This document shows positions 9,192-59,866 of a DNA stretch of 64,000 bases, piece after piece. Made by a program: the position numbers and the translations under genes. Below the pieces are notes generated by a model that saw only the letters and a program-made list of their open reading frames with translations, made no database searches and was not told where the DNA came from. The stretch covers positions 43,586,001 to 43,650,000 of the forward strand of contig OZ076415.1 of the NCBI GenBank assembly GCA_964187785.1, read 5' to 3'. Every line of letters starts with the position of its first letter. Position 1 is the first letter of the stretch. The stretch comes from Amphiscolops sp. MND2022. Lineage: Eukaryota.

Positions 9192-9261
9192 TAAAGCCAC
9201 GCCTTCAAACAACAACACCCCAAAAACAATGCTCAGCTGATGACTGGCAGCATCCGCCGAG
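9182..9261 (+). promoter_or_regulatory. -1 ribosomal frameshift signal of Gypsy A
   Basis: T TTA AAC heptamer just before the gag stop, followed by GCCACGCC and a hairpin at 9232-9261. The same arrangement occurs in B. Confidence 0.75.
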
Positions 9262-14150: not shown

Positions 14151-14424
14151 AAGACAAATCAAGAGACTCAGACACTTGAATTATATGTTATGGTCTCCTT
14201 CGTCATTCTTTTTCTCATGTTTTTTATTCATTCTTTATCTCACTTCCAGTCAAAATTGGAAGCTATCAATTTTTTCTCTCCAAACTGGAGGTAGACATCA
14301 AATGAGGCGTAATCAGTCGAAAAAGAGAAAATAACCATACAAACACAACAGACATCAAATCAGCCAAAGTATAGAAAATTCGAGAGTCAAGATGAAACAT
14401 CAATGATCAATTCCAGTCAATTCT

Positions 14425-18870: not shown

Positions 18871-20046
18871 CTGAAACAAATACGAAATCAGCAAATATAG
18901 AAAATTGGGACAGCCAAAGAATTGACTGTTTAAGATAGTAAAGCCTGATCAACTCTCACTTTAAACAAACAGGACTAGCTAGTTCGAAAAATTATTCACG
19001 ACTTGAAACAGGAAATCCGGATTTCAACCTGCGAATAGTTGGTGAAAACTGAAATTTGTTCAACAATCGGAACGGGATGTTCGAAAGAACCTTCGATGAT
19101 TGTTTGAAATCAAATCTTCGCTCCATTTTAATTAAATTGGACGAAAAGAAATTCGAAAAAACAGACCTTGTGTTGGCTCTTCGCTTTTTTCTTGGCCAGT
19201 TTTTTCCCTTCCATTGTAGAGTAGATTCCCACAGAGTAGAAATTGAAATTCCTTCATGGTAGATGCAAATTTCAAAAATGAGACGCAATAAGACTCAAGA
19301 AGTGATTGTAACTGGTAAATGAAGAAGAATAGAGATTTGGAAAGGACGAAACCGTAAATGAATCTGACAAACTATGGAAACTGAACGAAATAAAGGAAGT
19401 AGAAGATCAGTGTGAAAACTCTTGGGGGACTGTTAAACGACGAAGGAAAGACTATGAAAAGACAAAGACTTGGAAACTTGAGATAGTATGTAAATTCGAA
19501 GAAGAAACAATCTTGAAAGGCGTGGCAAATTTGCTTATTGCTTTTATATCATTTGTCATAGGCTGATAAAAAAACGAATCACGTTGTTACGTCAGAAGTG
19601 AATGATGCTACAAAGGTGTGAAAACCTTCACTTTGATGAACCTGAATGAACCTACGATATATTAAATTATGAGCAATTAAAACTAGTCAGACGGAATAAG
19701 AAGACGACAACCGAAACATAAAAGAAATTGAAAAAAAAATTTCAGGTTTTGATGATTGTTTATATGACATTAACAATTTGACCGGTGCTATTCCCCCATT
19801 TCTCATGATAAATTACCTGACAACCCGGGAAATGGGTAATTCGAGATATGTTTTGATGCTATTTGTAAGAAAAACCCCGTAACCCAATAAAAAACTATAA
19901 AATCCTATCATTCTGATCATAAATCTCCAAAAAATTGCCGCTTATTTTCCTCCCTCTTTTTGACAAATTCCTTGAGAATTTAATAATCATATTGTGTTAA
20001 ATCTTCTTGAAACTTGACGGGAATCGAATAAACCCATAGTCAAACA

Positions 20047-20996
20047 ATGGAGAGTACACCACGAAACTCGATACTTAATAGAACTGATTCAATGAACCGC
20101 GCATTGGACCGAATCAACACCTCAAGTAGTTCGGGGGAAGAACTCATGATGGAGCCCCTCTTAGTGAACGATCTCGATGAAAGGTTTAGATCTGCCCCAT
20201 ACCCTCTGACAGACATGTCCACAGCCTTTATGGGGGCAGCAGGAGCAGTATTATTCCCTAACAGTGCCGATCCAAAAGCAGGAGATGGCCAACAAATTGA
20301 AACTAGGAACTCCCGTATCGAGATAATGAACTAATGGACTTCATGGATGACGTATCTAATATATCCTCCCTGACCTTCATCGGATCATCAGAAGAAAAAG
20401 ACAACCGGTTCGTTGGTTCCAATTTCGCTAATGTGGATCAGGCTGAAAGAAACAGCTATGGTCGACCAGTCCAAAGGGTACAACCTATGGTCGGAACCTC
20501 GCGTGTAACAAGAGCAACAGTGAATCCCCCGCTCGTACCAAGTAGCAGGAGCGCTTTCTCAGTAGTAATACCCGAACAACGAAGAGCTCCAGAAATACAA
20601 GCACACCCACTTATGCAAGCTAATTACTTGCCTATGCCCGTTCCATTTTACCCCAATAATTGGAACAATATTACACATCCTCAACAAAACTTTAATGGTC
20701 AAGCTCAATTTCAGCCTCAGGGACCACCTAATGGGCCCATATTGCAGTTGAACCCTCCAGTAATGCCTGAAGTGGCAGGGTTTTGTGCTGGCTCTTCCAA
20801 AACTTATGACCAAATTGCTATCGAGACGCTCACCCACTATGTTGCGTGGTCCGAATATCCAGAGGAAACAATTCGCGATCGCAATGTGAGGTCAAGAGCA
20901 TTCGTTAATGGGTTTGGAGCAGCGCTGATCTGCTTCAAAAATGCTGGACTGTCGCCGGCTTACCCGTGCGAGATGTCCGGAGTGCAACATCGATAA
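20047..20996 (+). pseudogene. Sense ORF3 of Gypsy A (frameshifted), ending inside the LTR
   Basis: ORFs 20047-20334 and 20334-20996 align with B ORF3 (TAFMGAA..LFPN, NSYGRPV, DQIAIETL...VRSRAF.NGF.AAL..FKNAG). Confidence 0.8.
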
Positions 20997-22122
20997 AACA
21001 GTCAACGCTGCTTACCCATCATGATGGCTGTCTACCCGAATATGGACAAGAACTTGATAAACATTTCAGACTTTAAACTTAAACAATGCTTGTTGTTGTT
21101 CGTTTATTAAAATGTTGCTTTTAGTTGTACATTTCATCTAAAATGATGATTGTTGAATGTCGTTATTGTTGTCATTGTTTCACCCATAGGGTGCGTTGAT
21201 CAATTGAAAAACAACTGGGAAGGTAATGCCAAAGCTACCTAAACAGTGCTAAATCTTTGTTTTGTCGTCTTAAATCATAGGGAGGAATTAAATTCAATGG
21301 TCCTATATATCTTTGCTACATTAAATCATTTGTAGTCCAATCATGAGGAAAACAAACCAAAAGAGTATGACGATCCATTTAAAAACAGCATAATGATTTC
21401 GTGCGTTTACATAATACTGATTATGCGGTATTATGCAGTTTTCACAAAACAGCATATGCGGTTTTGTTAAAGAAACAGCATAATGATTATGAACGCAGTA
21501 TAATTTATACTTTGTATTCCATTAAGCGGAAATTCAGCAGAGACAGCATGATGACTTGAGTTAAAAACAGCATATGCGGAAATTCAGTAGAAACAGCATG
21601 ATGACTTGAGTTAAAAACAGCATATGCGGAAATCTAGAAGAAACAGCATGATGGTTCAGATTGGAAACAGCATATGCGGAAACCCCGTGGAAACAGTATG
21701 ACGTTTCAATGTAGGAACAGCATATGCGGAAATTTGAGAGAAACATTTTGACGTTTTAACTTGAAAACAGTATAAAGATTCTTATTGCAGTTGATAAAAT
21801 TATACTGAATTATGAGGTTTTCATGAGACAGTAATATACTGCATTATGATGTAAAACAGTATAATTTGCAGGATTTTCAATGTTACGACGTTGTAAGTCC
21901 CAGTGCTATATTTAGACCTTCCAGGAGTCTGACGTAATATCATATTTTTAACATTTAACCCTAGAAACATGACGTTATGATGATTTGCATAAAATTGAAA
22001 GTCATGTAACTTAAAAAATCACCCAATAAAATCAGTTGAAGAAAGACCATCAAAAAATCATTTTTCTAACGATCATTCGAGAAATATCGCACATTCAGAG
22101 CAGTCACTCAATTTCACAAACA
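20950..22122 (+). repeat. Truncated extra LTR copy made by a 1373-bp tandem duplication
   Basis: The LTR start tgtcgccggc occurs at 20950 and again at 22323. The first copy breaks off at atttcacaaaca (22122) and sequence from about 20758 resumes at 22132. Confidence 0.9.
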
Positions 22123-22322
22123 GTAATGCTACAGTAATGCCTGAAGTGGCAGGTTTTGTGCTGGCTCTTCCAAAGCTTATGACCAAATTGCTGTCGAGAC
22201 GCTCACCCACTATGTTGCGTGATCCGAATAACCAGAGGAAACAATTCGCGATCGCAATGTGAGGTCAAGAGCATTCGTTGATGGGTTTGGAGCAGCGCTG
22301 ATCTGCTTCAAAAATGCTGGAC

Positions 22323-24170
22323 TGTCGCCGGCTTACCCGTGCGAGATGTCCGGAGTGCAACATCGATAAAACAGTCAACGCTGCCTACCCATCATGATGG
22401 CTGTCTACCCGAATATGGACAAGAACTTGATAAACATTTCAGACTTTAAACTTAAACAATGCTTGTTGTTGTTCGTTTATTAAAATGTTGCTTTTAGTTG
22501 TACATTTCATCTAAAATGATGATTGTTGAATGTCGTTATTGTTGTCATTGTTTCACCCATAGGGTGCGTTGATCAATTGAAAAACAACTGGGAAGGTAAT
22601 GCCAAAGCTACCTAAACAGTGCTGAATCTTTGTTTTGTCGTCTTAAATCATAGGGAGAAATTAAATTCAATGGTCCTATATATCTTTGCTACATTAAATC
22701 ATTTGTAGTCCAATCATGAGGAAAACAAACAAAAACAGTATGACGATCCATTTAAAAACAGCATAATGATTTCGTGCGTTTACTTAATACTGATTTTGCG
22801 GTATTATGCAGTTTTCACAAAACAGCATATGCGGTTTTGTTAAAGAAACAGCATAATGATTATGAACGCAGTATAATTTATACTTTGTATTCCATTAAGC
22901 GGAAATTCAGCAGAGACAGCATGATGACTTGAGTTAAAAACAGCATATGCGGAAATTCAGTAGAAACAGCATGATGACTTGAGTTAAAAACAGCATATGC
23001 GGAAATCTAGAAGAAACAGCATGATGGTTCAGATTGGAAACAGCATATGCGGAAACCCCGTGGAAACAGTATGACGTTTCAATGTAGGAACAGCATATGC
23101 GGAAATTTGAGAGAAACATTTTGACGTTTTAACTTGAAAACAGTATAAAGATTCTTATTGCAGTTGATAAAATTATACTGAATTATGAGGTTTTCATGAG
23201 ACAGTAATATACTGCATTATGTTGTAAAACAGTATAATTTGCAGGATTTTCAATGTTACGACGTTGTAAGTCCCAGTGCTATATTTAGACCTTCCAGGAG
23301 TCTGACGTAATATCATATTTTTAACATTTAACCCTAGAAACATGACGTTATGATGATTTGCATAAAAATGAAAGTCATGTAACTAAAAAAATCACCCAAT
23401 AAAATCAGTTGAAGAAAGACCATCAAAAAATCATTTTTCTAACGATCATTCGAGAAATATCGCACATTCAGAGCAGTCACTCAATTTCACAAACAACTCA
23501 CAATCCACAAACTTCGCAGTTTCCTTTCTCTGTAAAAATAACTTCCAAAGTTTCATTTTGCCAAAATATCTTTGTAATTCAAAGATTTTCGCACCTAACA
23601 TTGTTTTCATCATAAGAAACAAGAGAAATAGACGATCAAGGAGAATAGAATCTCAATCATCAGACAGAGACAAAATTTCTTCGGAAACAAGCTTCACTCA
23701 AGGTAATGCGACTTTAGTTGGTGTTTCTGAAAATGATATTACTACTCTTGACAGGAACTTAGGCAGCGAACTAACAGAACCTTCTCAAATAAGCAATGAG
23801 ATAGAAGTTATTTCACAAAGACTAACAGAACAGAATAACGACAAGATGTCACAGATCGAAGAGCAACTAAATAACAAATTCGAAGAGATACTTAAGGAGA
23901 TTAGAACAAACAAAAAGTACATTGTAATAACTGATGAAGAGGATGCCGAGAACAATCAGCCCGGTCATTCTAACTATAGAAATGAGGGTCTCAGGAACAA
24001 ACACGCATCAAGTTCAACATCAGATAAAATTAAGAATCAGGGTGACCGGTTCTATCCGTCTGAAATGAGTGAATTGAGACAACCGTACACTTCCCTTGGG
24101 ATTGCTGAAGACACTTTAGACGAAACCATCATCATAAATGAAAACAGACAGGCAAGGGCCGATCATCACA
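22323..24170 (+). repeat. 3' LTR of Gypsy A (1848 bp)
   Basis: Matches 6260-8106; followed by TSD GCCTG. Confidence 0.95.
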
Positions 24171-41964: not shown

Positions 41965-44329
41965 GCGAAAAAAATTCCGAAACATTTTTTTGAAAAATTT
42001 TTAGAAATATTTTTTCGCTAGAATTTTTATCGAATAGTTTCATAATACCGAAAAACCTCAAGGTTGCCTCTATGCTCGCTAAACGTTTTTTGTTTACTAA
42101 AAGTAGAAGGGGGGCTTTGGTAAAAAAAATCAAAGAAGCTCGTCTAGTATCTAAAAAAACTAAACCATTTGGTCTTTTCCACCTCTGCAAGCATTAAAAT
42201 TTTGGTTTAGCTAGTGACTCGAACCCACGTTAGTCTGAAATGATCCGATAAAATGGTTTGTTGGTCATCCACGGTATGAATAGAATAAGAATATAAAACG
42301 TAAATTTGATTGGAAAGCAAAATTTCTTGAAAATAGCTGGATAAATCATTGTACAAAACAGTCGTTTACAATGGGGATGAAAAAAAATAAAAGCTCAAAT
42401 CTTTGCCCAGGTTAACCATTTTTTCTTCATTAATCTATCTTCTAGGATTATATATAGGATTTATCTATAGAAACTCCATTTTTATGCCGCAGCCTAAAAT
42501 AGAAGTATTTATTTACACAAAAATATATGGTATAAAATTCTCTTCTAAGCTAAAAATAGGAATGATGGCAGACAAAGATTTAATGCCTCGAGAGCTCAAT
42601 AATTTAGTGTCTTGAGATTTCTTTTGACAGCTTCATTTTCAAGGTAGATACACTTTCGATATTTCCCAGTATTCCAAGGTGGAATATCTCGCTCTTTTTT
42701 CAGAAATTGTCACTTCGTCAACCACACTTAGCGCAACTGAAGAATTATCTATTATTAGGTACCTCGTTTTGCTTGCATTCAGTTGCTTTGGCAAAAGAGA
42801 AATTGTTTGAAGAGTTAGACGGTTTTCTCCAATCTGATGTAATAATATCATGTTAATTGGAAACCAAATAGGAAATTACACATTTGGTTAACTCATGTTA
42901 TTTCAATAATAGGCAAACCCCTACTTTAGCATACAATTTCCTCTTACAATACCCTTTTAGCATACAATTTCTTGTTATGCTTAGAATTAGAAATTGTGTG
43001 ATAATAAATATTGCTTGCCCATTATTTTCATACGACTTTTAAAACGCAGCAAATTATCTAGATAATTTGCTGGGTTCTAAAAGTCGTAAGAAAATAATGG
43101 TAGATAGCTACTATTCGGAGTTTCTGGAGGAGCTCAATTGATTTTTAAAATATATGGAAGTAAAGAAACCTCAGCCACGCAACAGTTTTTGAACTGAAAT
43201 TTTGGCACAAAGTGACTGAATAACATTTATATTTTAATCGCAGACTGATCAAGTTGACAAAAACGACATCTTTGCCACTCAAGGTATCTGAGAAATTTAC
43301 CCGTGCTGACACTCTAGGGCACTACAGCGATGGCTACCGATTAGCCATCGATTGCCACTGGTGTACACAAACTTGACTCAATTGAAAAAATTTACAACAC
43401 TTGTAACTGATTGACCACCGGTTGGTTAACCGTCGGTTGAAAAACTTCACAAGTCAAACTTTCATTTTCATCTCGGAACTACCAAGGTTAATGGTGAATC
43501 ACGAGCAAAATCTCAACTGTTAGACTCGCATTTTATTGTCTCAGGGTACCATGATGATCGGGAATAGCGAATAGCTCTCTCAAACCACAATGGTTTTGCT
43601 AAGGGTCATTTTTTCAGTAGTTATCAATGGTCAAACACACAGGTTCAAATAGAAAACCTTGTTGCTGTTGGTTTTTGTCTCAAGCATTAATCATGATAAT
43701 TTGTCTCTTAGTTTTTTGGGAAAACTTTCATCTTGTGCTCTTGACTCAGCAAAAACGTGGAAACGATGATGGAATTGAGTTGTCAGAATTGCCATCAATT
43801 TCAATTATCATTACCAATAACTGAAAACCAAATTATTAAAATTTGAAAATTTAATTTGAAATTTATTCCTGAATAATAATTTTTTTCAGCCGAAACTGTT
43901 GCAAATACATACATTTGGTTGCTTTTCAGAGTTCCTATTGACATTATTCGATTGGACGTCGTTCACACGGAGATGATTTTGCGTCGCCATCACTAGATTG
44001 GCTAATGGAAATTTAACCACAAAATGTAAAGGTCAGTGTCGCGTCCCCAAAGGTGCGATGGGTCCGGTGTGCAACTTTAAGAAGATAAACAACGTCTACA
44101 ATGTTGTGTCAAACTCTAAAAACTCATCCACTAGTCATGTAAGTTATGTAAATATATTACTTCTAATCAGGGTCTCTTAATTGTTTTACTTTGTAAAAGT
44201 AACACCTGGATGTACTTTGGGCAAATTCAAAAGCCTTAATGATGATTTTATTAGTCCAAATAACACATGTGCAGTGCTACTATTTCATTCTGAACAAATG
44301 ATATTAATTGGATACGTCATCATACAATA

Positions 44330-44560
44330 TGATTACTATTGAATATGCATCACTGCGCGCATTTGTAATTCTCAGTATACGTCATTATACGTTTCAACCA
44401 TTAATGAGTATACGTCACTATACGTATTTGTGATTTTCATTATGCGCCATTATGCGGTTTGTGCAGTGATGAATATACGTCAATATGCGTATTTTCTCAT
44501 CCAAGTTTATATGCGTCATCCCGCGGTTCAAGGAGTAGCGAGTACTCGGCATTGTGCGTT
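44330..44560. repeat. TATACGTCA/TATGCG degenerate array in the LTR of B
   Basis: Repeated tatacgtca(c/t)tat(a/g)cg units. Confidence 0.7.
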
Positions 44561-44708
44561 TCTCGCTATGTTCCTTTTAATTTGAAGGATTAACTTTATG
44601 TTTCCATATATAGTGATAAAAGTCCATAAAATATCGTTGTTTAATACCTTTCTAGGGTCCTTTAGACAGCGGAATCGTTTCTGTATGTCATGATATGATG
44701 AATCATAA

Positions 44709-44718
44709 TATATAAATA
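44709..44718 (+). promoter_or_regulatory. Candidate TATA box in the LTR of B
   Basis: TATATAAATA about 300 nt upstream of the gag ATG; mirrored at 58988. Confidence 0.45.
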
Positions 44719-45007
44719 GGATGACGACATTCTGACGAGGCGCTATTATTAGGTTTTCCTGGGAATGATGCTAGTAAAATTGCGTGTCATCCTTTTGTAA
44801 TTTTTGGGTTTTCTTTAGAAATAGAAGGAGCTAACACAAGTTGAATAACTTTCCTCAAGTTCAGTTGGTTTTACTGGACCATAAAGCAATCATTGTAAAT
44901 CATCTTCATTTTTGGACATCCTAAACAACACCGCCTATTTTCATACAAACTTTCATTTCAAATTCAAATTCTTGACCCTGCAAACTGATCGTTTTCACTT
45001 GAGAAAG

Positions 45008-46702
45008 ATGGGGAATAAGAGAAACAGGAGATCTAGAAGACTAGAAACACCGTCTCCAGACAGAAACCCGATTGAGGCACAAGTAGATACGTCAACTCAA
45101 GGTAATGAGACTTTGAATAATTTTAACTCAGTTTTACAAGAGAATTTAGGTGAAAACGTCTCAGAAAATCCAATGGTTGAACCAAGCCAAATTAGTAACG
45201 AAATCCAAGTTTGGACCCAGATTATAGAACAAAAGAATAATGATAGAATCGAGAGAATGAGAGAAGAAATAGACAACAAGTTCGAAGCAATTCTGAAAGA
45301 AATCAAGTCAAATAAAAGTGCATCAACAGTAACAAATCCGAGATCAGAGCTCAATGAAAATCAGGAACCACAAGCGTCGGGGTCCAAAACTAACAAGCCT
45401 ATAGGAGTTCACGCATCTCTAAATGAAAATTCAGATTCGGAAGATGAAGATTATCCTTTAAGGGCTTCAAAAATGAAAGATCTTAGACATCCTGCAAAGC
45501 CTTTGTTTCGAGCTGAATCAGATGTAGATGTAACTATACATTCAGACGAAGAGTCTGATGCTGAACCCCTAAGAGAGGATTATCACATGGTGACAGGAGC
45601 CAACCGACAACTCCATAGGCAAAGTTCACAAAATCCTCTAAACGACACAACAGGATCCCACGCAAACCAAAATGCATCAAATTCAACAACAACACCACTT
45701 GATCCAGTCAATCAAATCGCACTTGCCATAGAAAAACTGGCGAACAAAAACTCACCACAATCACTGTTTCATCCTAAAAATACACTCACCTTCAACGGAA
45801 AAAACGAGAAAAACGAAAAATTTGAATACTTCGAAGACTTGTTTCACACAACACTCCGAATGCAACCAAACCTAACAGAGGACATGAAAATCAATCATTT
45901 TCACGCCCATCTCAGAGGTTTGGCCCTCAAAACCTTCAAAAATATACAGCGAACTCCAAATACCACCTTAGAAGACATTCTGAAAGTCTTTCGCAGAAAA
46001 TATGTAAAACCGGAGTCTAGTGCATCTGCAAAACACAGATTTAACAGACTCTCATTTGACCCAGAACACCAAAAACTCCCGGATTTTCTAGAAGAACTCC
46101 AGGAAAGTGCCGAAAAAGCGTTCGGGGAGAACGCCCACCAAATGATAGAGAATCTACTCTATGCCAAAATGCCTCCCCACCTTAAAAAATCCATTAATCA
46201 AGCTTATCTTGAAAATGGAACATACGACCAAATCGTCAAACATCTCGAAAGAGAGATGGAGCTAAATGGTTTGGAAGCTGATGAACCCCTGGTGAAAACC
46301 CAGATGTCGGCCACGAAAAAAGAACAAAACGCTGAAAAAACCAACAAAAAACAAAATGAAAAAGCCAAAACACAAACACCAAAAACAGTACCGAATAAAA
46401 CCCTCAAAAACGATCAATGCCGCTACTGCAAAGAGACAGGGCACATGATGGCTGAATGCCCCAAATTAACCAAACGACGTAAACTTGAGGAAGACCCAGA
46501 TGCTGAAAAATGCCAAAATTGCAATACACCGGGCCATAACGAAGAAAATTGCTACTTTGGCGCAAACATGGAAAATAGACCACCTAAATGGACTCTCACT
46601 GAAGCCCAGAAAAAGGTGATCGAAAACTATAAACAAGCTAAAAAACCAATCAAACCACGAATGGAACGACAACAACAATCCTCGTCGAAGGATTTAAACT
46701 AG
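45008..46702 (+). CDS. gag: Gag of Gypsy B (intact; N-terminal about 193 codons lie in the LTR)
   Basis: ATG MGNKRNRRSRR at 45008, capsid-like region, two CX2CX4HX4C knuckles (CRYCKETGHMMAEC, CQNCNTPGHNEENC). Confidence 0.93.
   Translation: MGNKRNRRSRRLETPSPDRNPIEAQVDTSTQGNETLNNFNSVLQENLGENVSENPMVEPSQISNEIQVWTQIIEQKNNDRIERMREEIDNKFEAILKEIKSNKSASTVTNPRSELNENQEPQASGSKTNKPIGVHASLNENSDSEDEDYPLRASKMKDLRHPAKPLFRAESDVDVTIHSDEESDAEPLREDYHMVTGANRQLHRQSSQNPLNDTTGSHANQNASNSTTTPLDPVNQIALAIEKLANKNSPQSLFHPKNTLTFNGKNEKNEKFEYFEDLFHTTLRMQPNLTEDMKINHFHAHLRGLALKTFKNIQRTPNTTLEDILKVFRRKYVKPESSASAKHRFNRLSFDPEHQKLPDFLEELQESAEKAFGENAHQMIENLLYAKMPPHLKKSINQAYLENGTYDQIVKHLEREMELNGLEADEPLVKTQMSATKKEQNAEKTNKKQNEKAKTQTPKTVPNKTLKNDQCRYCKETGHMMAECPKLTKRRKLEEDPDAEKCQNCNTPGHNEENCYFGANMENRPPKWTLTEAQKKVIENYKQAKKPIKPRMERQQQSSSKDLN
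45588..45601 (+). promoter_or_regulatory. Primer binding site of Gypsy B (inside the gag frame)
   Basis: TGGTGACAGGAGCC immediately after the LTR; tRNA identity uncertain. Confidence 0.7.
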
Positions 46703-46772
46703 AAACGCCACGCCTTTACACAAAATCACCACAAAAACAAAACTTAGCAGATGACTGGCAGCATCCGCTGAG
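46693..46772 (+). promoter_or_regulatory. -1 programmed ribosomal frameshift signal
   Basis: T TTA AAC in the correct phase before the gag TAG. The -1 frame is open without stops into the pol ORF. Downstream hairpin at 46743-46772. Confidence 0.85.
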
Positions 46773-49700
46773 CCCAAAACCCACAAAAACAACAGTTTGC
46801 GAAACTGAACAAACGACACAAACTCCGCAGCAATCGACCTTAGAAACTCAAACTGCAGACTTATACGAACTTTTACATGATGCACCAGACAACTACTTCC
46901 CAAAACAACAAACCCATCCTAATACTGACCCAGACTCCAATATTCACCACGATTCACCTCTTAAAAATCATGTCACTATCAAAACTTCTTGCAATGATCA
47001 AAAACAGCCCCTTCTAAATGAAGACCTAGCTGAACACCTACAATTTGACAAAGAACGCAACTTGTCATACCTACCAATTTCAACATCCTTGACATTGAAG
47101 CGCAAACGACACATGTACTACATTCCAATGGACTTCCAAAACCTCACACTTGATGGTCTTATTGACACAGGAGCTCTCACAAGTGCAATCTCCGAACAAG
47201 ACCTCAACAAAATCAAATTACTCGCAAACGATGCGATAAAAGAAACTGGTCCTCCACCAAACTTCCAAATTATGGTGGCAAATGGACAACTAGAAGTCCC
47301 CATTGGTACAGTACTACTAGAGTTCGAAGTCGCAGACTTCATGTTAAAGGAAAACTTCATCATCATGAAAACCCTACCAAACCCGCTCATCGGATTGTGT
47401 TTCCTTCGCCGAAACAACGCAATTTTCGATGTCACACAAGGAATCTTAACCTTTCCTTACCTCTCGATGCAACTGAAACCCGATACCCAAACAGCAATAC
47501 GGCAAGCAACACCATTGTTTGCAGAAAATACCTACACACTCAGGCCAGGCGAAACACTTGCTATAGCAAGCAAAATGCCTCACCTGATGGACCATAACGC
47601 AACCGGAATAGTCACTCCATCACAACAATTTGAAAACCACGATAGTATTTTTATTACAGCATCACTTAGCACAGTTAATAATAATGCCATCGGCTACCAG
47701 ATCATCAATTTTTCAGAATTGCCATATACAATAACCATTGACATTTTCGCCAGACATCGCTTTGACATCGGTATAAACCGCGAATTCAAAGTCAAATTAA
47801 CACCCAACGACGACAGGCCAGCTTACAGCCAGAGTCTGCCAACTCCAATCAACCTCAAAGACGACATCACAGTAGAACTTGCGCTTCTACACAAGTACGG
47901 TATAATCACTACTCTACCGTTTTCCAAATATGCAAGCCCGATTTTTGCACAACGCAAACCAAACGGGCGCCTTAGACTCTTAGTTGACCTCCGGAAAATC
48001 AATAATCTTATCACTGAGGATTACGCCAATAATAACCACCCGGTAAGCACCTTATCTGATGCAGCCCAACACATGGCAGGGAAAAAGATTTTCTGCAAAC
48101 TGGATTGCTCCCAGGCTTACCACTGCCTCCAAATGGCTGACTACCAATCTATCCAGATGCTCGCGTTTAACTTTGCAAGCAGAACATTTGCTTATCGACG
48201 CCTCGCCCAAGGTCTCAGTCGATCTCTCTCCGCATTTTCAAGCTTCATGAGAGAATACCTAGACAGAGCAATTAAAGCAGATCAATGTGCCCAATATGTC
48301 GATGATATCGGCATAGCAGCAAACGACACAAGACAATTGTGTATAAACATCAAAACTGTTTTTGAATGCATCCGCAATGCCGGACTGAAACTCTCCATGT
48401 CGAAATGTCATTTCGGAGTTAAACAAGTCGACTTTTTGGGACGCACAATCACACCAGACGGAGTTGCCCCTCAAGCCGACAAAGTGAAAGATTTTTTGGC
48501 AAAACTCAAATTCCCAAAATCGAAAAAGGCACTTCAAAGGTATATCGGATTCTTGAATTATTACCGAAACTATATACCTCGCCTTTCAGAACGACTCACC
48601 CCGTTTTTCAAACTCCTCAAAGAAACCTCCAAATTTTATGTCCCTACAAACTTGGTCGAAGACTTTACAAACCTCAATCAACTTTTAGAAAACTCTTGCC
48701 AACTCGCACTCAAACAACCCTTGAAAGACAAACAACTCATAGTCATGTCCGATGCAAGCTTCACAGCTGCAGGATATGCCATCATGATTGAAGACGATCC
48801 CAATCAGAAGCTCCAATCCAAACGAAAAACCTACGCACCCATTGCGTTTGGATCAAAAACATTCAATCCAACACAAACGAAAATGTCCATCTATGCAAAA
48901 GAATTCCTCTCAATATATTTTGCATTCGTGGAGTTTGGACACCTCATGTGGGGGAGTACCTTCCCTGTCATCGTGTTCACGGATAATCGGTCTGTCACCC
49001 GGTTTTTCCAAACGAAAATGATTCCTCCAGCGCTTTGGAATGCATGCGATTATGTACTACAATACAATTTTGTAATCGCCCATGTAGCTGGATCGATGAA
49101 CACAGCCGCCGATTTCTTATCTAGAACCGAAAGTAACCCAACCGAGAAGCTCGAAATGACCATTCGCAACGATATTCACACAAAAGCAATCGAAGTGAAT
49201 ATACAATCAACTGGAATTGTCGAAGAAGAACAAATTTATATCCTTCCTGATGAAGAAATCGATGAAAATCAACTTTGGGAAGAAAAACAACACACTCGCA
49301 ATCAAGCACAAAACGAAACTCACAATGACCCAGAGAACGACCTCTCTGAACTACAGCAATTTCATAAACCCACATCCGGATTGATCTCCTACTCCTCTGG
49401 ACACTTCAAGGACAATGCGAGGATACGCCTTGAACAGAACAATGACATAGTCCTTCGAAACCTGAGAGCCAAAATAGAAGGCGAACCGTTTGATGAAAAC
49501 GAACTAGCTTCCGATTTCAGATATCAACATTACTTACAAAACATAACACGAATCGAGATTAAACACGAAGTTCTCACACGCAAATACTATACAGATACAG
49601 GAATGATCTCGCATTATCAAATCCTCTTACCAATCCAACTTCTTGAAGAACTACTTCAAGCCCTCCATGGACATAACTCAAACCATCCAGGAATTACCAA

Positions 49701-51200
49701 GATGATTCAAGAAACACGTCAAAAATATTACTACCCATGTATGGCCAAATACATAAAGAAATGGGTCAGTAATTGTCAGATTTGTATACAAACAAAACGT
49801 ATCAACAATGATCTCCTCAGAACCGAACTCCTTAATTGTCCCGAATGGGACCTTGGTCCGGAAGACATCTTACAGATGGATATTTTGCCAAACCTCCCCC
49901 CAAGCGGAGGCTACGATCACATCATCACAGCAATAGATGTCTTCTCACGATATTTGTTTGCCTATCCTGTGACTCGAATTACCGCAACAGCAGTTTCAAA
50001 AGTCATAATGGATATCTTATGCAAACATACCTACCTTCCAACAACTATAATCACGGATCTAGGCACTCAATTCAACGCACAAGTCACTCATGAAATTGCG
50101 GCAGTGCTTGGAATCGAACTGAAACATGCCACAATGAAACATGCACAAACCATAGGACTATTAGAAAGAACTCATGCCTCAGTTAAAACACACCTAAAAG
50201 CTGCCACGGGCGAATTCAGGAACAACTGGCATAAATATCTTCCTCTAGCAGTCCTCAATCACAACACCACATACCATGCATCACTCGGTTGTGAACCTTC
50301 ACGAGTTTTCCATGGCAGGATACCACACAATATTTTAGACTATAAACTTGGATACAACCCTAATCCGAGATATCAACCTCAAACCGACATAGCTGAAGAA
50401 ATCCATAAAAGGATGAAAATTCTGCTAGACCAGACAAAGAAGAATATCATGCAATCTTATCTCAAGTACAAGGCGTACTACGATAGGAAAGCAAAAGCAG
50501 CTCCACTCGAAACGACGGACTACTGCTATATTCTTAACCCAAAGGCTGACACTCAAGCAACGAAAATACCATTCCGAGAATTCAGATGGTGTGGACCTTA
50601 TAAAGTTGAAAAAGTGCTCCCTAACAATAACTATATTGTGAGGAGACTTGGCACAAATAAAACCCAACTACTACATCGGATTCGTTTGCGGAAATTCACA
50701 CCGCAAGCCCCTTTAGCAGACATTTTTGTTCGCGAAACCGACTGGCAAAAAGATGATCAAATGACTATAGCAAATGATGATCTATATGCCCAATCATGGA
50801 ACACGAATTTTGGAGCAAATCCATTTGATGACATTCCCTCAGATGCAATACACAATACTGAGGATACCGAATATGTCCCAATTCAAATACCCGACAATAG
50901 CCGCCCACCCTCCCCAGTATCTTCAAAAAATAGCGGGGGGAGCCCAGTGGATCAGACCACTGAACCAGATCAAAATCACGGAAATCATGCTGATGAAATT
51001 CCACAACAATCAAATGATGATGATAACAATACCCAAAAAACCCAAAAAGATACATATATTTCAACAGAAGATGATACTCAAAAACTCCAGAAAATCCCCA
51101 AAATACCCCATTGCAAGAAGAACCCATAAATACCCGTGGTGAAAAATACAACTTACGCCCTAACCCCAACCCAAACTACTCTGACACATATAGATATTAA
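46693..51200 (+). CDS. pol: Pol of Gypsy B (PR, dUTPase-like, RT, RNase H, IN); has an in-frame internal deletion and a 1-nt frameshift near the C terminus
   Basis: LIDTGA, YVDD, MSDAS/TDNRS/ADFLSR, HGHNSNH...CQIC, QMDIL/TDLG/LLERTH. The ORF-track stop is 51129, but the tail homologous to A (EKYNLRPNPNPNYSDTYRY*) ends at 51200 in another frame. Confidence 0.93.
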
Positions 51201-51431
51201 AACAACTTCTAAACTTTGACTCATACAATCACTAAGAAAAGAATTGCAGAGGAAAATTTTCTTTGAACTCCTTCTCTCTTGACCGCACTTTAGTGCGTAG
51301 CTTGACTTTTCCTCGTTTTCTTCTATACTAAAATCTGCGCTCCACCCAAATAAATACAAGGATGCACAGCTTTACAACACAAATGAAACAAAAGATGAGC
51401 ATAAGACTAAATAAAGAGAAACAGTCAACAA

Positions 51432-54400
51432 CTAGTTTTTCTTCGACTTTGGCGCTTTTGCACTCGCTTTCTTTGGAACAGCTTGCTCGGCTCCGCTTGA
51501 ACACCGGTTTAGTGGAATACTAGCACGACTCAATGAAGGATCCGGTGAGGGACTACTTCCCACGCTGCTGGTCCTGCTCACACTCGGAGTAGTGGCACTA
51601 GAAGATACAGAAGGCTTATCATGACGTAGAACAGCTTTCCTGTAATTAGTTTCCATTTTCCCAAGCAAGACTGATCTTCGGGAACCACTCCCTTTAAGGA
51701 AATTCCATACAGAAAACTTTTTGTCACCTATCAAGTCTACCCCCCTCCCTAACAAACGAAAGACTCGTCCGACGGCTTTTGGATCTCTAAATAAACTTGA
51801 AACATGTGGCACTGTCTGATAAGAAATCTGGAGACTCCGAATACAAGACTGAAATACATCCTTATCAGATTCCAAATTTGGGATGGGCACTATGAAGGGT
51901 GACGGCAACTCCACAATTGGTGCCAGACAGAGGCAAGAGTGTTTGAACAAACGGAATAACTCTGGTCGACACTGAAGTTCATAGTATGATGACATAAAAT
52001 GAATCCAATCGCTGTACTCAGGAACGGAACCAACACGTAACTTGGTCACAAGGGAGCGGTATTGGCTAACAGCCTTCACCTTATCGCTGGAGGAAAATAA
52101 CCCGGCCGATACAAAATGAGAAGTCAACTTGTCGATCGCAGTAACATAATGCTCTTCAGAATTTTCAAAAATAACGGCAGGGTCAAAAGCAGAAAGCCCC
52201 CTGAGCAAATTCGATTGAACAAAATCATGAGCCAACAATTGCCTGCAGAAAGCTTTACAGAAGCTGATTGATTGTTCCACGAATTTACTTGGCCGAGGTA
52301 ACTTGCTAGCTATCACAAGTCGGTGAAAGTCTTCATTCAATATGAACTCATCAGGAGACTTGTACGGTAATGCGGTAGAATCCAAATCTAGATGAAGGAA
52401 GCCGTCCCAGTTCGAAATGTTGCCCAAGATACTATCGGGCAAGATGCTCTGCAATTGACTGTAGGCAAAGACTGTAAACTGGTTGAACAAACGAAAACCG
52501 CCTTCCACCTGTTTTTGGACCTCTGCGAATGATGAATTGTCTGAAACAAAACACAACATCCAAAATTACAACTATAAAGTGAGAAATCATAAAAATTAAC
52601 GTGTTAAAACTCTGAATGGGATTAACTAATATAACACGTGAAGAAACAAGCTGCGCCAACTATTTCAATACGAAGTATTGCGAGAATTATGCGTCATTAT
52701 GCGGTTCAAGATGTGACGATTATACGTCACTATGCGGCTTGAGCTGTGACGATTACTCGACACTATGCGGAAATAGTGAAGGGTGACGATTATACGTCAC
52801 TATGCGGCTTGAGCTGTGACGATTACTCGACACTATGCGGAAATAGTAAAGGATGACGACTACACGTCACTATACGGTCCAAACAGTGATGTCAGTGCGT
52901 CACTATACGGTTTGAGCTGTGGAGAGCGATCGCCACTATGCTGAAATGGTATTATATGGTGACGATGCGACAATACACGTCTTGAGATGTACCGAATACT
53001 TGTCATGATATGTATGTATCATAAAACAACGCAATGCAAATCAGAAAACAGTGACCAGGGACAATTATGAGCTATTATGAGAAACAAGCCAAGTAACTAT
53101 TTGTCTTGATATGAAAAGATGAATTATATACCTGAATTTTTTACACCGAACAAAAGGAAACAACCAACTAACAGTGATCGAGGACGCATCTAATGATGAA
53201 CAGTCTGGCCAAGTAGGCCGTGTCCAGGCGGAAACATTCGTCCAAAGTGCTTGGCTGAAAGAAAATTAGGAAATAAGATGAGGTCAGTCCTGACTAAAGA
53301 CAAATCGAGAAAACTGAAAATAACCTCTCTCATGTGGAAGCGGTAAGCAGGGAGTCGAGCCACTTGATTCAAATGATTCTGGACATGATTCCAGTTGCTG
53401 GACAGGATCTCAATCAAATCTGACGCTTCGACAAGTGAATACTCCAATTGGGTAACACACTACAACATTAAAAAATCGAAATTGGCGAGAAGAAGTCTTT
53501 TATCAAAGAACAAAGTGACTTATGATTGGGATTTTACCTTATGCAAGAGAGGTAATTGTTGCAACCAATCCCGGTCGAGGGCAGTCCTAAGTTTCATCAT
53601 CAGGAAATCCAGAATTGTCCTGTAGTCATGCCTCTCGATTATCTGTACAGTTGGGGTAGCCAAACTGCGTTCAAACTCCTTAGGGCCAAAGGTGTGGACT
53701 ATTGTGGGGTGGTGCGATCCAGGCAAGGAAGCAGTCAGGCAGTCACTAAGTTTGTCATCAAAATCAATAAGAGCCACACATGTCGGGTAAGTCTCGAAAA
53801 GACCGAGGAAAGAGGATACCAGGGTGATAACCTTCCTTGGGAGTAACAGTCCTCGAGGTGCCCCACCAAGGCAAACTCGGTGGTAAACATTGCCAGCCCA
53901 GAAGCAAAGCATGACGAAAGATACGGTGCTGGTATGTTGAATGGCCAAAGAATAATGTCCAGAAGTAGCGATCATCGAGACACAGTGGCTTACCAATTCC
54001 CGAAACATGTAGACCAGGATACCCTGTAACATGAAATCCTTTCAGTATACAAAAGAACTGAAGTGGGTATTTGTGCGCGGACATCGCGTAAAATGGTATA
54101 AGTGATACCTAGTATATCAAAAAGATAACGAAAATAAACCTAGAGAGAAGGAAAGAAGAGACTTACAAAGAGACGTTCGGGACCCCAATTTTGCATTGAC
54201 AACCGGTCGCTGGACGTTAAGCGCACAAGCTCGTCATACATTCCAGTTAAACTGGAAATGTGCCCACCATGCTTCAAACCGAACTCAAGGATACTGATTT
54301 GAGATAACACTTTGTCTGTAGGACTACTGGTAGCGGTAAAATCTGGAATTGACTCTTGTCCCACGAGAGGCCGACAAGAATCGAGTTGGGGAGCAATAGG

Positions 54401-55871
54401 ATAAGTGTCTTTAGCTTTCCTCTTCGCTTCTTGGAGAGCAACCCCTAACAGTTCGGTCTGGTCCTTGTCGAAGAGAGGCATCCCTGGCACCTCCATGCGG
54501 ATTCGATGCTCCTTGACCAGGTGAGCTTCTGAGCGGTAGTGCGAGATCAGTTCAAGACTCCCTCTACTCATGAGAGACAGCTCTACTTTGCAGACTCTGC
54601 ACCACCATTTATGGGGGGACTTGTCCTTATCTAATGGTCCAGTGGCAGAGAATTTTAGGACGGGATGTTTCTTGAGCATTCCGCCGGTCAGAGAATACCG
54701 GGCTCGACGTCGTTTCCCCCGCGCCAAAGTGACGCTCTGGCTCGTCCCTTGATGAGTTGTTCCAGAATCAGTTTGCATTGTTAGCTCTTCCTGGCTAGAC
54801 GTGGCAGGAACTACAGCCGGCACAAGATCGTCTACGATTGTCAATCCCATGGGATGATGAATGCCAATTTCTTCACTAGTAAGGAATGCGGGAGGTATTC
54901 TATCAAGCACACTCGACAAAACGAGGATCTCCTGTCGTGTAATGCTAAGGCTTGGGAGGGTTGTATTCTGAAGAGTGGATTCTTCTCCTGCATGAACGAT
55001 ATCCTCCTGCAGACGAATATCTTCGGGGTTCAGTTCTGTGTCCAATCCAATCACAGCAGGATTTTGGGGAACGTCATCATTGTTTCCAGTTTGTGGAAGA
55101 AATTGATCAAATCGTGGGGATTCCATTTGGGAACTACATTGTGGAATCAAGTCCTGGTACACACTCTGAGTGAAATTACCCGCCAATGCATCCATGCTTT
55201 TGACAGGGGTAGTATCAGGAGTTGAAGCAACAACAGTTTCGCTGGAAAGATCCTGGGTCTGACCCTGAACCGTGTCGGAAGATGGGTCTGTAATTTTCAA
55301 GGCTGAAGGATTAGTGTGGGTCTCGACCGTTATCCCTTCATCAATTTGTAAAGGTGGCTCACTGGGTGTTCCCACCTCAGCCGCTAGACCGCGGGATTGG
55401 GGTGTTGCGACTTTCAGTGCAGCATAAACTTTCGTCGGTGAATTAGAAGGAGCAACTTGAGCCTTGTCTTGTTCAGCTAAAACAATCGGTCTATTACTAA
55501 AATAAAAAGGAAGTGGACCACGCAAGCCTTTTCTGTTCAAAAATCAACTGGAACCGGACGCGGGGACAGGAAATGAAAGAGGAACGGAAATCGCTTAGAA
55601 GTCAGAAACGGAAACGTTTCGAAAAAATTCTGAATCTGATCTAGAAGTTGTTCTGATCATTTTCATTTTTGCGAGCCTGGCCAGCTTAGCAGAAAGCATA
55701 AACCTTTGGAACAGAACTAAAATGAACCTGAACTAGAATAAAATTGTTGAACTTACATGGCATTGGCTCAGGAGGCAAATCACAATTCCAGAAATCATCC
55801 TGGTGGTGCAAGGGGTAACCTTTTCGAGATCTTCTTTTCCCGGGTGAACTCGTTTCTCGTTGGGAATCCAT
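51432..55871 (-). CDS. Antisense spliced gene of Gypsy B, about 1078 aa; zinc finger plus hAT-transposase-like region
   Basis: Predicted exons 55757-55871 (tentative), 54167-55476, 53538-54023, 53325-53459, 53173-53254 and 51432-52540. All introns are GT-AG and the exons sum to 3237 nt in one open frame. Junctions of exons 2-6 are conserved in A. Confidence 0.85.
52680..52990. repeat. Tandem array (about 70-bp unit) in the last intron of the B antisense gene
   Basis: gtgacgattatacgtcactatgcggcttgagctgtgacgattactcgacactatgcggaaatag repeated. Confidence 0.85.
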
Positions 55872-56284
55872 TTATTAACAGAGGCGATTCGTTGAAGAAC
55901 ACAAGTCAACAATAAATTGGGAACAACAGGGTAATAACCAGAGAGTAAACGGAGTAACACTTGCAGTGTTGGGAAGAAGCAGTCGACAGGTGAAGGAGGA
56001 AAAGAAAACGAACTCTGTAAATACTGAGACTTTGAACTTTGACTATGAATTTTACTTGATAAACGTAAGCAATGTTAATAGAACAGGACAAAAGGCGTGA
56101 CGTTAATGTAACAAAAGAAGGCAAAAGAGCAAATGAAATGATTGAGCGCAAATATGCGTGGAGAATGCTGCAATTTGATTGGCTGTCCACATGTCAATTA
56201 CGTCTGCCAGCGTGATTGATTGACTCATTACGACATCTGAAAGCAATAAAGACTCATTCTCATCACAACCGTGCCGTTTGGAAT

Positions 56285-56520
56285 GATTTAATATGCGGCA
56301 GTATGCGGATTTGCCAATAACGAGTATACAGCAGTATGCGCTTTGTCGACTTGAATTATGCGGCAGTATGCGGATTTGCCAATAACGAGTATGCGGCAGT
56401 ATGCGGAATTGCAAGGACGAGTACGCGGCAGTGTGCGGAATTGTCAGCTGGAGACTATGCGGCACTATACGGATTGAGCAGTGACGTATACTCGTCACCC
56501 TGCGGTTTACGCTGCATACA
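56285..56520. repeat. TATGCGG tandem array upstream of the antisense gene
   Basis: gagtatgcggcagtatgcggatttgccaataac-type units. Confidence 0.85.
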
Positions 56521-57303
56521 TTCAAAGGAACGGATTAATGTTACTAATGCTTGAAATTGAATGAAAAGACAATATTACATAATACTGTGATGTAATTACG
56601 GCTTGCAAATATCAATCATGTGTGATTTTACTGATGTTTAGCCAGATACCAGTGCAGTTTTGAACCAAATATATGTATAACAGCTTAGTCTGGTGACGCT
56701 TTTCAAACCCTTAAATGAAGTTACTGGTAGCGATGAAATCCATGTATTAGATCATAAACTACATTTATATCCTTTAAAATACAGGACAGGAGTCGACTGA
56801 TGTTTTCTTTAAAAGTCATATGACCTTTGGAAGTAGGATAGGAAACGCTTCTTAGCTTTCCCTATTTTTTACAAACAGTCATGTAGCTTGAATATATTTG
56901 ATTGTAGTTTGTTTTATTGAAGAATATTGTCATGAAGAGTTTTAGTTCATTTTCACTCACATCGAATTGAATTTGTTTACGAATCATTAAAAGTAGATCG
57001 AATGCTGTGAAGGATGATGATCAAGGGAAATCAGTTGAAGTGCTTAACATCACACCTTTTATGGAAAATGTTTATGATAAATTGTGGATGATGCTTGTGA
57101 TATGAATCTAGACAGGAACCCATATAAGGTGGTGTAAGAACCTAAAAAGCCATGACACTCAACTTTTTCGCGGGTTTTCCATCGAAAACGAAAGGTATAA
57201 AAGAATCCATCATAATATGGTCTATAACAATCTGAAATTCAGTTGCTATTAATATCAAAATTCTGCTTTAAATAGTCTGATTTTAAATACAAATCAAAAG
57301 AAA

Positions 57304-58359
57304 ATGAACCCCCTGCAATTTAACCTGGACGAAGATTTGGGCTACTCGCCTATTTCACCTGATGTCATCGACATCTCCAGTGGTTCGGGGGACGAGTTCG
57401 TGGTAGAAGCTGGCAACATCCCCCAGTTGCACGAGAAATTCAGGATCAACACGACGGGGACAAACATGATGACAGCCTTCATGGGTGCGGCAACAGCGTC
57501 ACTATTTCCTAATACTGACCATGTTGACCAATCGGGATCTATAGATACGGCTGGAACTCATATTGAGAGGGAAATCATGGATCTAATAGAAGAGGGCCCT
57601 TCCTCCTCTCCTGAATCTCCGCTGTCTTTCATAGATTCGGAATTTGAAGAGGTTGGAATGACCCCAGTTAATGTTAATGCAGAACCCAGGATCCAACTGA
57701 ACAGCTATGGGCGTCCAGTCGCAGCAATATTGCCTACACCAAGAGCCACAATACAACAGTCGAATGAGATCGCCAGGCCAGTGCCCACTTACCCCCCAAA
57801 TTTTTCACGTGGGACACATGATTCACACCAACTTCAAGCAATTAATTCAGACGCTCAAGAAACTGTGAACCTGCCGGTTCATCAACCAGAAGGGGTTTAC
57901 CCTCAAACAACTTTTGTCCCAGAGGGAATAGCATACCCGGCCGTCAATGACATCACTCCAGTAGTGATACATCTACCCCCTAGAAACATGGGTAATCCTC
58001 AAGTCAACTTCAACGATCAATTTCAACAAGTAGTCCAAGCTGGGTTCCCGTTCAATGTTCTACACAGCACCAACATCTTACTGATGCCGATTAATGAACG
58101 ACAGAATTTCAGACTGTTCCCGACGGTCATGCCCAACGTCTCTGGGTATTGCGATTGGTGTGGACGCACTTTTGATCAAGTGGCTCTAGAAACGTTGGGT
58201 GACTATCTTGGGGCGACAGCTTATAATGAAGAAACAGTCAGAGACCGTGGAGTCAGATCCAGAGCCTTCATAGACGGATTTGAAGCCGCGTTGTTTATCT
58301 TCAAGAACGCGGGACTGTCGCGTCCCCAAAGGTGCGATGGGTCCGGTGTGCAACTTTAA
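57304..58359 (+). CDS. Sense ORF3 of Gypsy B, 351 aa, unknown function; stop lies in the 3' LTR
   Basis: Intact ATG-to-TAA ORF homologous to A 20047-20996. The last 44 nt come from the LTR. No signal peptide or TM segment is evident. Confidence 0.85.
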   Translation: MNPLQFNLDEDLGYSPISPDVIDISSGSGDEFVVEAGNIPQLHEKFRINTTGTNMMTAFMGAATASLFPNTDHVDQSGSIDTAGTHIEREIMDLIEEGPSSSPESPLSFIDSEFEEVGMTPVNVNAEPRIQLNSYGRPVAAILPTPRATIQQSNEIARPVPTYPPNFSRGTHDSHQLQAINSDAQETVNLPVHQPEGVYPQTTFVPEGIAYPAVNDITPVVIHLPPRNMGNPQVNFNDQFQQVVQAGFPFNVLHSTNILLMPINERQNFRLFPTVMPNVSGYCDWCGRTFDQVALETLGDYLGATAYNEETVRDRGVRSRAFIDGFEAALFIFKNAGLSRPQRCDGSGVQL

Positions 58360-59866
58360 GAAGATAAACAACGTCTACAATGTTGTGTCAAACTCTAAAA
58401 ACTCATCCACTAGTCATGTAAGTTATGTAAATATATTACTTCTAATCAGGGTCTCTTAATTGTTTTACTTTGTAAAAGTAACACCTGGATGTACTTTGGG
58501 CAAATTCAAAAGCCTTAATGATGATTTTATTAGTCCAAATAACACATGTGCAGTGCTACTATTTCATTCTGAACAAATGATATTAATTGGATACGTCATC
58601 ATACAATATGATTACTATTGAATATGCATCACTGCGCGCATTTGTAATTCTCAGTATACGTCATTATACGTTTCAACCATTAATGAGTATACGTCACTAT
58701 ACGTATTTGTGATTTTCATTATGCGCCATTATGCGGTTTGTGCAGTGATGAATATACGTCAATATGCGTATTTTCTCATCCAAGTTTATATGCGTCATCC
58801 CGCGGTTCAAGGAGTAGCGAGTACTCGGCATTGTGCGTTTCTCGCTATGTTCCTTTTAATTTGAAGGATTAACTTTATGTTTCCATATATAGTGATAAAA
58901 GTCCATAAAATATCGTTGTTTAATACCTTTCTAGGGTCCTTTAGACAGCGGAATCGTTTCTGTATGTCATGATATGATGAATCATAATATATAAATAGGA
59001 TGACGACATTCTGACGAGGCGCTATTATTAGGTTTTCCTGGGAATGATGCTAGTAAAATTGCGTGTCATCCTTTTGTAATTTTTGGGTTTTCTTTAGAAA
59101 TAGAAGGAGCTAACACAAGTTGAATAACTTTCCTCAAGTTCAGTTGGTTTTACTGGACCATAAAGCAATCATTGTAAATCATCTTCATTTTTGGACATCC
59201 TAAACAACACCGCCTATTTTCATACAAACTTTCATTTCAAATTCAAATTCTTGACCCTGCAAACTGATCGTTTTCACTTGAGAAAGATGGGGAATAAGAG
59301 AAACAGGAGATCTAGAAGACTAGAAACACCGTCTCCAGACAGAAACCCGATTGAGGCACAAGTAGATACGTCAACTCAAGGTAATGAGACTTTGAATAAT
59401 TTTAACTCAGTTTTACAAGAGAATTTAGGTGAAAACGTCTCAGAAAATCCAATGGTTGAACCAAGCCAAATTAGTAACGAAATCCAAGTTTGGACCCAGA
59501 TTATAGAACAAAAGAATAATGATAGAATCGAGAGAATGAGAGAAGAAATAGACAACAAGTTCGAAGCAATTCTGAAAGAAATCAAGTCAAATAAAAGTGC
59601 ATCAACAGTAACAAATCCGAGATCAGAGCTCAATGAAAATCAGGAACCACAAGCGTCGGGGTCCAAAACTAACAAGCCTATAGGAGTTCACGCATCTCTA
59701 AATGAAAATTCAGATTCGGAAGATGAAGATTATCCTTTAAGGGCTTCAAAAATGAAAGATCTTAGACATCCTGCAAAGCCTTTGTTTCGAGCTGAATCAG
59801 ATGTAGATGTAACTATACATTCAGACGAAGAGTCTGATGCTGAACCCCTAAGAGAGGATTATCACA
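58316..59866 (+). repeat. 3' LTR of Gypsy B
   Basis: Direct repeat of 44037-45587; followed by TSD GTCAG. Confidence 0.97.

Follow-up and report, generated by a model that had tools for sequence, protein, structure and literature searches.

Clade-specific dyad motifs in a Ty3/Gypsy retrotransposon family of Amphiscolops sp. and their likely recognition by an antisense protein of the elements

For plant DNA transposons, it is established that elements can encode regulators specific to their own family (PMC5735166; bioRxiv 10.64898/2026.08.24.746577). The VANDAL/VANC system, as described in PMC5735166, has short family-specific motifs that are dense in introns and upstream regions and form arrays gained and lost by tandem repeats, and binding of the protein to these motifs is shown. 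The report on Spm TnpA presents a transposase-derived regulator with clustered family-specific motifs, in which motif and lineage diversify together, and treats the loss of catalytic residues as one way in which a transcription factor can arise (bioRxiv 10.64898/2026.08.24.746577). The BED domains of Hermes are described as binding short subterminal repeats cooperatively, in pairs (PMC10368747). Plant Retand/Tat retrotransposons are Gypsy elements with an antisense open reading frame (ORF), TRP28, which lies between pol and the 3' long terminal repeat (LTR) and is predicted to be DNA-binding, and they carry family-specific tandem arrays; the role of such antisense accessory ORFs and of neighbouring repeat arrays is described as unknown in that account (PMC11963269). 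Here, we compare with these systems a 64,000-nucleotide stretch of Amphiscolops sp. MND2022 (assembly GCA_964187785.1, contig OZ076415.1, positions 43,586,001 to 43,650,000, forward strand; hereafter the window), which contains two Ty3/Gypsy LTR retrotransposons, element A (6260..24170, +) and element B (44037..59866, +). Common to both is a gene order in which an antisense multi-exon gene (the cargo gene) and a sense ORF, ORF3, lie after pol and before the 3' LTR.

The arrays of short motifs in the non-coding DNA of these elements appear to be lineage-specific two-part motifs (dyads) and are likely sites for the elements' own antisense protein, which would regulate the elements of its clade; we assign this reading a probability of roughly 55%. 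The sites very probably bind some protein, and the binder is probably the cargo protein. Based on analogy with the plant systems, the chance that the cargo both binds and activates is about even. The feature would then be a clade-specific, operator-like code extending across at least five lineages.

The word TATGCGG occurs 45 times in the window, whereas 100 dinucleotide shuffles of the same sequence gave 2.74 on average and never more than 9. Of the 45 copies, 31 are in element A, 14 in element B, and 0 in the remaining 29,720 bases. The longer word AAACAGCAT is found 30 times in A and 0 times in B, and all 9 copies of TATACGTCA are located in B. The B 5' LTR array (44376..44520, +) consists of TATRCG half-sites (R, A or G) spaced by 10 bp, with a TATA-like word downstream at 44709, and is identical to the 3' LTR array (58655..58795, +). 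The B intronic array (52686..52910, +), with 10 TATRCG and 3 full dyads, would lie inside the inferred last cargo intron (52541-53172), and the B spacer array (56292..56500, +), with 7 TATGCGG at a period of 32-33 bp, is situated between the divergent cargo gene and ORF3. Within element A, the 5' LTR array (6732..7084, +) combines TATGCGG with inverted CAGCATA half-sites and has copies at ~21383-21774 and ~22756-23147, while the intronic array (16082..16795, +) is composed of inverted pairs, TATGC(G/T)G-N14-C(A/C)GCAT, with a period of 38-40 bp and sits between the exons at 16950-17450 and 15930-16004. The intron positions in A and B are predicted from GT-AG sites and reading frame. Tandem Repeats Finder identified arrays at 6833-7084 (period 50) and 16143-16624 (period 40) in A, and at 44361-44494 (period 65), 52686-52877 (33/37/70), and 56292-56443 (32) in B. 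A preliminary description made from the letters alone had placed arrays in these regions, and they are found at its coordinates. It had also given TATGCGG as the motif of the B LTR, where the array is present but is mostly TATRCG, with TATGCGG only once among 9 TATRCG. The arrays it described in the LTR and an intron of A are present as well, and clade A additionally has a spacer array, with at least three sites in 30 of 37 copies; the window copy of A is without one because of a ~515-bp deletion at 19530.

The wider family was sampled as 140 ten-kilobase stretches around chosen hits to the cargo exon that encodes the finger (40 B-like, 40 A-like, and 20 each for clades C, D, and E), selected for diversity from top lists and not drawn at random. 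Two of the A-like stretches turned out to belong to clade D. All 140 stretches have the same gene layout, and 134 were scored in the motif matrix after the six without an LTR segment had been excluded. A tree of the finger exon, made by a quick method from 117 rows (the window's A copy and frame-broken rows being excluded), groups 40 B rows, 22 D rows, and 20 C rows beside an A group of 35 rows that is unresolved, and hence no order of events is claimed.

The A and B motifs were taken from the window and then tested in the family copies. Non-coding DNA of clade A contains 573 inverted pairs, in 36 of 37 copies, and that of clade B contains 292 dyads, in all 39 copies. Clade C has 64 instances of GGCC-N6-GGCC (19/19 copies), a motif that came from an unbiased scan of all GC-containing 4-mer pairs; clade D has 28 dyads (18/20), and clade E has 63 instances of GGAC-N5-GTCC (18/19), mostly in the LTR. 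The non-coding motif-by-clade matrix is diagonal apart from 11 B-type dyads in A, and 190 kb of random DNA gave counts of 0, 0, 2, 0, and 3 for the A to E motifs, respectively. Copies of B carry TATRCG half-sites 10 bp apart, in a unit repeated every 32-33 bp, in the last intron, the spacer, and the LTR; in A copies, the half-sites form inverted pairs with a 21-bp spacing, located in an intron other than that used in B, in the spacer, and in the LTR. Clade D copies are without arrays and retain a related 10-bp dyad, often without the CpG (sites often TATGCTG), which matches in the intron in 22 of 22 copies and in the LTR, on the opposite strand, in 17 of 20. An essential CpG was rejected on account of these D sites; A, B, and D share a TATRC core, and the CpG proposed earlier is not a constant feature. 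The C and E sites are dispersed palindromes, and tandem arrays occur in two of the five clades only (A and B). As in the VANDAL/VANC system, the motif is dense in non-coding element DNA and rare outside it, here at the level of clades, the tandem form being limited to A and B and the sites in C, D, and E being single or dispersed. Confinement of the motif to the elements also stands for the window, but the motif is not specific to an individual element, as it marks a whole clade and TATGCGG is common to A and B.

Several variants were observed beside these motifs. Clades C and E share recurrent AAATGGC/CGCCATTTT words in the spacer and LTR, which we take to be YY1-like. In 17 of 19 clade C copies, CAGACTAA is present once in the spacer and once, on the opposite strand, in the LTR. 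One B-clade intronic array (L121, G000:C1:2557110-2557372) has a period of 82 bp, equal to 33 + 49.

At the genome scale, the finger exon has ~6,000-7,000 first-look candidates, a figure that does not give copy number, and DNA of the element family was present in 5 of 20 10-kb stretches drawn at random. For the 17-bp B dyad, 2,960 exact matches were counted genome-wide, compared to 0 for a reversed control, and the 30 loci examined among them form 9 clusters, 9/9 of which are in family DNA. TATGCGG was found 7 times within family DNA and 3 times outside it in the 20 random stretches. Cargo matches recur every ~12-15 kb at L174 (G000:C11, ~10.23-10.27 Mb) and at G000:C12 14.85-14.87 Mb, a spacing that points to tandem or nested runs of whole elements.

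The sites could instead be enhancer or insulator modules for host transcription factors, with a different factor or arrangement in each clade, as in the repeated sites of retroviral U3 regions and the Su(Hw) sites of Drosophila gypsy. The arrays are near a TATA-like word and words resembling CCAAT or the cAMP response element (CRE), the core TATGCGG shared by A and B would be readable by a single host factor, and host factors would likewise give fixed spacing and purifying selection. However, host DNA shows no enrichment of TATGCGG (2 copies vs 5.9-8.6 expected in 189.5 kb of element-free DNA), and the five dyads, all different, vary along with the lineage of the element. Moreover, the base after TATGCGG is free and rarely G, which is at odds with both the RUNX and the GCM consensus. 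Recognition by host factors is thus an unlikely explanation in our judgement.

The geometry of the sites is kept across non-homologous locations. The 21-bp inverted pair of clade A recurs in the intron (30/35), the spacer (29/37), and the LTR (26/37), with linkers that are hardly more similar between these places than after shuffling (0.40-0.48 vs 0.33-0.35); 10 bp is the most frequent distance in the last intron, spacer, and LTR of clade B, and the C and E motifs have a single gap length almost exclusively. Between disjoint related pairs of copies, half-sites and flanks differ by 0.037 vs 0.121 in A, 0.032 vs 0.119 in B, 0.016 vs 0.126 in C, 0 vs 0.061 in D, and 0.017 vs 0.114 in E, a comparison that is partly circular for C, D, and E because their motifs were found in the same sequences as counted. 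Over the 50 disjoint pairs, flanks accordingly differ ~3-8 times as much as half-sites in A, B, C, and E, with 0 half-site changes at 90 positions in D. These values bear on the possibility that the arrays are neutral minisatellites akin to the Retand arrays, having reached LTR, spacer, and intron through slippage, template switching, and conversion. Array copy number varies widely between copies, clades C, D, and E replicate without arrays, and the linkers of the 33-bp B units show some similarity between places (0.32-0.39 vs 0.25-0.29 shuffled). Neutral spread nevertheless appears very unlikely, as half-sites are several times slower than linkers and flanks, C, D, and E keep dyads that are single and not in tandem, and sites are absent from the non-coding DNA following pol in every clade examined.

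The intronic sites occupy different introns in different clades. The intron after the exon with a predicted RNase H-like fold has a median length of 887 bp in A, with at least three sites in 35 of 35 copies, 521 bp in D, with one site, and 68 bp in B, with none. Conversely, the last intron is ~610 bp in B, with at least three sites in 36 of 39 copies, and is short and without sites in A and D. The D intron site is in the intron of the A array, on the strand opposite to the D LTR site. By this comparison, the intronic site has moved between lineages, and the earlier suggestion that the intronic arrays of A and B sit in different introns and expanded independently is borne out across copies.

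Five exons of the cargo gene of B were modelled on the minus strand, joined at GT-AG sites with one frame kept to the stop. The most upstream exon modelled (54167..55540) encodes a low-complexity N-part and a BED-like finger (C-x2-C...H-x5-H); it is followed by an exon with a predicted RNase H-like fold (53538..54023), by two short exons placed by GT-AG sites and frame (53325-53459 and 53173-53254), and by a helical last exon (51432..52540). The finger ligands C, C, H, and H are invariant or near-invariant among relatives, and zf-BED matches were obtained for 4 of 37 relatives (best E 1.6e-4) and not for the window protein itself. The middle exon is predicted as RNase H-like with a predicted local distance difference test score (pLDDT) of 82. 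Its Foldseek ranks 1 and 2 are Hermes (E 2.5e-3 and 3.7e-3), and its VIA comparison with Hermes (Z 6.2, root-mean-square deviation (rmsd) 3.4, 104 residues) is tied with integrases and others. Hermes is also VIA rank 1 for the last exon (Z 5.2, rmsd 4.3, 143 residues, tied with other folds), and the Atlas places this exon with hAT C-terminal clusters (0.91-0.92, low recognition). Pfam searches of the window cargo exons and ORF3, as well as profile searches of solved structures, gave nothing useful.

We presumed that the catalytic columns can be placed by an offset to the Hermes residue numbering. The column on the first Hermes acid then contains Q in 19 of 49 rows, E in 11, and others, and the column on the second contains G in 40 of 49; no conserved glutamate motif follows the last matched helix in the aligned relatives. 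The D-D-E triad of hAT transposases is not conserved in the cargo. We infer hAT ancestry with loss of catalysis from predicted structures, because the weak Hermes matches agree in order along the protein. The cargo finger protein is conserved and under purifying selection, with a ratio of nonsynonymous to synonymous substitution (dN/dS) of 0.02-0.14 in the one to three pairs per exon that were computable, the remaining pairs being saturated. The gene has a fixed place inside LTR elements, and no longer, spliced homologues were found, which is weak evidence. Genome searches with P0059, P0145, P0141, and P0137 returned nothing at strict cut-offs, that for P0145 being too strict since a relative, P0133, is present. 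In clade D (L101-L120), identity between copies is 93-97% for ORF3 and the start of gag and 68-76% for the cargo exons, a difference suggestive of cargo exchange between near-identical LTRs.

Between the zinc ligands, each clade has a nearly invariant set of residues: LSLMSRGSLE in B, LSLKTKGSLE in A, LSL(K/M)TKGPLE in D, (F/I)S(I/V)(R/K)(S/T)KG in C, and VSI(Y/F)(S/T)KGARE in E. Similar fingers accompany similar half-sites, with a TATRC core in A, B, and D and GG(C/A)C in C and E. The preliminary description had named the zinc-finger protein as the obvious candidate binder, as a hypothesis, and in its favour the motif type tracks the finger-gene lineage in five clades and the protein appears hAT-derived; on the other hand, ORF3 co-varies with the motifs equally well. 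ORF3 (57304..58359, +), which is likewise conserved as an accessory ORF and has a CxxC domain at its C-terminus and no family match, runs into U3, is present in all five clades with a dN/dS of 0.03-0.06, and, like gag and pol, follows the same clades as the cargo. It is the chief candidate if the sites are bound by another element product, or are used in integration, packaging, or looping, and the spacer array is located between the two accessory genes. Such a use appears decidedly unlikely considering that ORF3 has no match to a known DNA-binding family and that fingers like that of the cargo are known to recognise short repeats. RNA stems are also disfavoured, since the usual A pair would fold into an imperfect hairpin and the sites of B and D are repeated in direct orientation.

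Several observations weigh against recognition by the cargo. The co-variation of cargo and motifs may reflect shared ancestry alone; the data do not single out the cargo because all element genes co-vary and recombinants that part the cargo from ORF3, gag, or pol were not found among the sampled copies (one pol case is marginal). The five clades are few and related, and the C, D, and E motifs were counted in the very sequences from which they were derived. The finger residues of A and D are near-identical (LSLKTKG), yet their site layouts differ. A universal 10-bp dyad was rejected, as the prediction for E failed (it has a 9-bp-offset palindrome) and A has mostly the 21-bp inverted arrangement. 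Two copies of a sixth clade, F, showed no clear motif. C- and E-type words also occur in coding stretches (the C word 16 times in C and 23 in E, the E word 33 times in E). The structural matches are weak (E 2.5e-3; Z 6.2 and 5.2) and tied with unrelated folds, and the last exon has no Foldseek match at E 0.001 or better and no Pfam match. Finally, CpG transitions are just 1.2-1.7 times the GpC control, so that the CpG-decay signal is weak and DNA methylation may not be the silencing mark opposed; CpGs within the motifs change more slowly than other CpGs (14/481 vs 336/4,340 in B; 63/552 vs 700/4,029 in A).

The cargo could also bind the sites and repress or insulate the element, thereby limiting copy number. 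The weak methylation signal would agree with this, as would sites in the cargo's own intron and next to its own promoter, an arrangement suited to an autorepressor. Repression is, however, most improbable in our view, as array growth in two abundant clades is more easily explained if more sites favour the element, and the plant precedents that have been tested activate.

Under the favoured reading, in which the cargo protein regulates its own clade, the cargo would retain those parts of a hAT transposase that bind repeats and form multimers, but would have lost cutting. Its targets would be the dyads of its own clade in U3, in the spacer between the divergent accessory genes, and in its own intron, which it would presumably bind as a multimer through the BED-like finger. 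Clades A and B may have raised their site density by tandem expansion via slippage, independently and in different introns. The effect would be activation of the own lineage, or its protection from silencing, a direction that is proposed by analogy with VANC and TnpA. More tentatively, and a little short of an even chance, the family would represent a radiation of animal LTR retrotransposons with a private transcription-factor code, in which a hAT transposase was captured and retained as a catalytically dead, sequence-specific regulator and each lineage acquired its own finger and operator dyad. If true, this would be VANC/TnpA-like anti-silencing in a class I element, and one genome would contain five or more natural pairs of protein and site. 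Cross-binding among the five natural finger-motif pairs would show whether a retrotransposon regulates itself via a captured transposase, and the pairs would show how BED-type fingers change specificity. A literature search at the title and abstract level found no description of this retrotransposon motif-cargo system.

Both elements have the features of Ty3/Gypsy retrotransposons, namely LTRs, a target duplication, a primer site, and the pol order protease-reverse transcriptase (RT)-RNase H-integrase. The LTRs of B (44037-45587 and 58316-59866) are identical, with a 5-bp target duplication, GTCAG. Its gag (45008..46702, +), an open frame with a CCHC knuckle, starts within the LTR, and its pol (46642..51129, +), an open frame, encodes protease, RT, RNase H, and integrase. 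Both B LTR ends overlap coding frames, with the gag start reaching ~580 bp into the LTR (45008-45587) and the ORF3 end 44 bp into U3 (58316-58359). Inverted repeats of ~460 bp, 82% alike, flank B at 43428-43883 and 60153-60609, which suggests that B may have been inserted into a foldback element or one resembling a miniature inverted-repeat transposable element (MITE). Element A is older and degraded, with interrupted reading frames, LTRs ~96% identical, and the target duplication GCCTG. Its 3' end is duplicated, the ORF3 end and most of the LTR being doubled head to tail (20755-22122 / 22129-23495, 98.8% identity). The window also contains a degenerate satellite at 33800-35500 (period ~183-195 bp) and a host exon of a rhodopsin-family G protein-coupled receptor (32114-32644, -; 7tm_1 E 3.4e-9), with more exons probably near 38050-38400. 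Adjoining a clade F element on the reverse strand of L191 (~7525-8892) are two inverted arrays of a 22-bp unit, ~12 copies each, which are possibly the ends of another transposon.

Comparison with the closest described systems gives partial likeness in each case. Hermes resembles the cargo weakly in its N-terminal finger, RNase H-like core, and helical C-part, as predicted from models; unlike Hermes, the cargo does not conserve the catalytic acids, its gene is antisense in an LTR element, and the sites are in U3, spacer, and intron instead of at the ends. Retand elements differ in that, in the account of PMC11963269, the arrays are not tied to TRP28 as its sites, whereas the motif described here recurs in the LTR with fixed geometry; the TRP28 domain (PF04195) has no match in the window elements or the cargo. 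The Spm protein TnpA, according to its report, stays in the source DNA transposon and binds its ends via a helix-turn-helix (bioRxiv 10.64898/2026.08.24.746577), whereas here a class II enzyme would be housed in a class I element. VANDAL/VANC, as presented in PMC5735166, shares with this family an element-encoded accessory protein and dense, family-specific short motifs. That system is, however, a plant Mutator-like DNA transposon, and the present one is a Gypsy LTR retrotransposon with a predicted hAT-like protein, spaced dyads, arrays missing in three of five clades, and putative binding. By analogy, this element family appears to work like VANDAL/VANC and Spm TnpA but belongs to neither.

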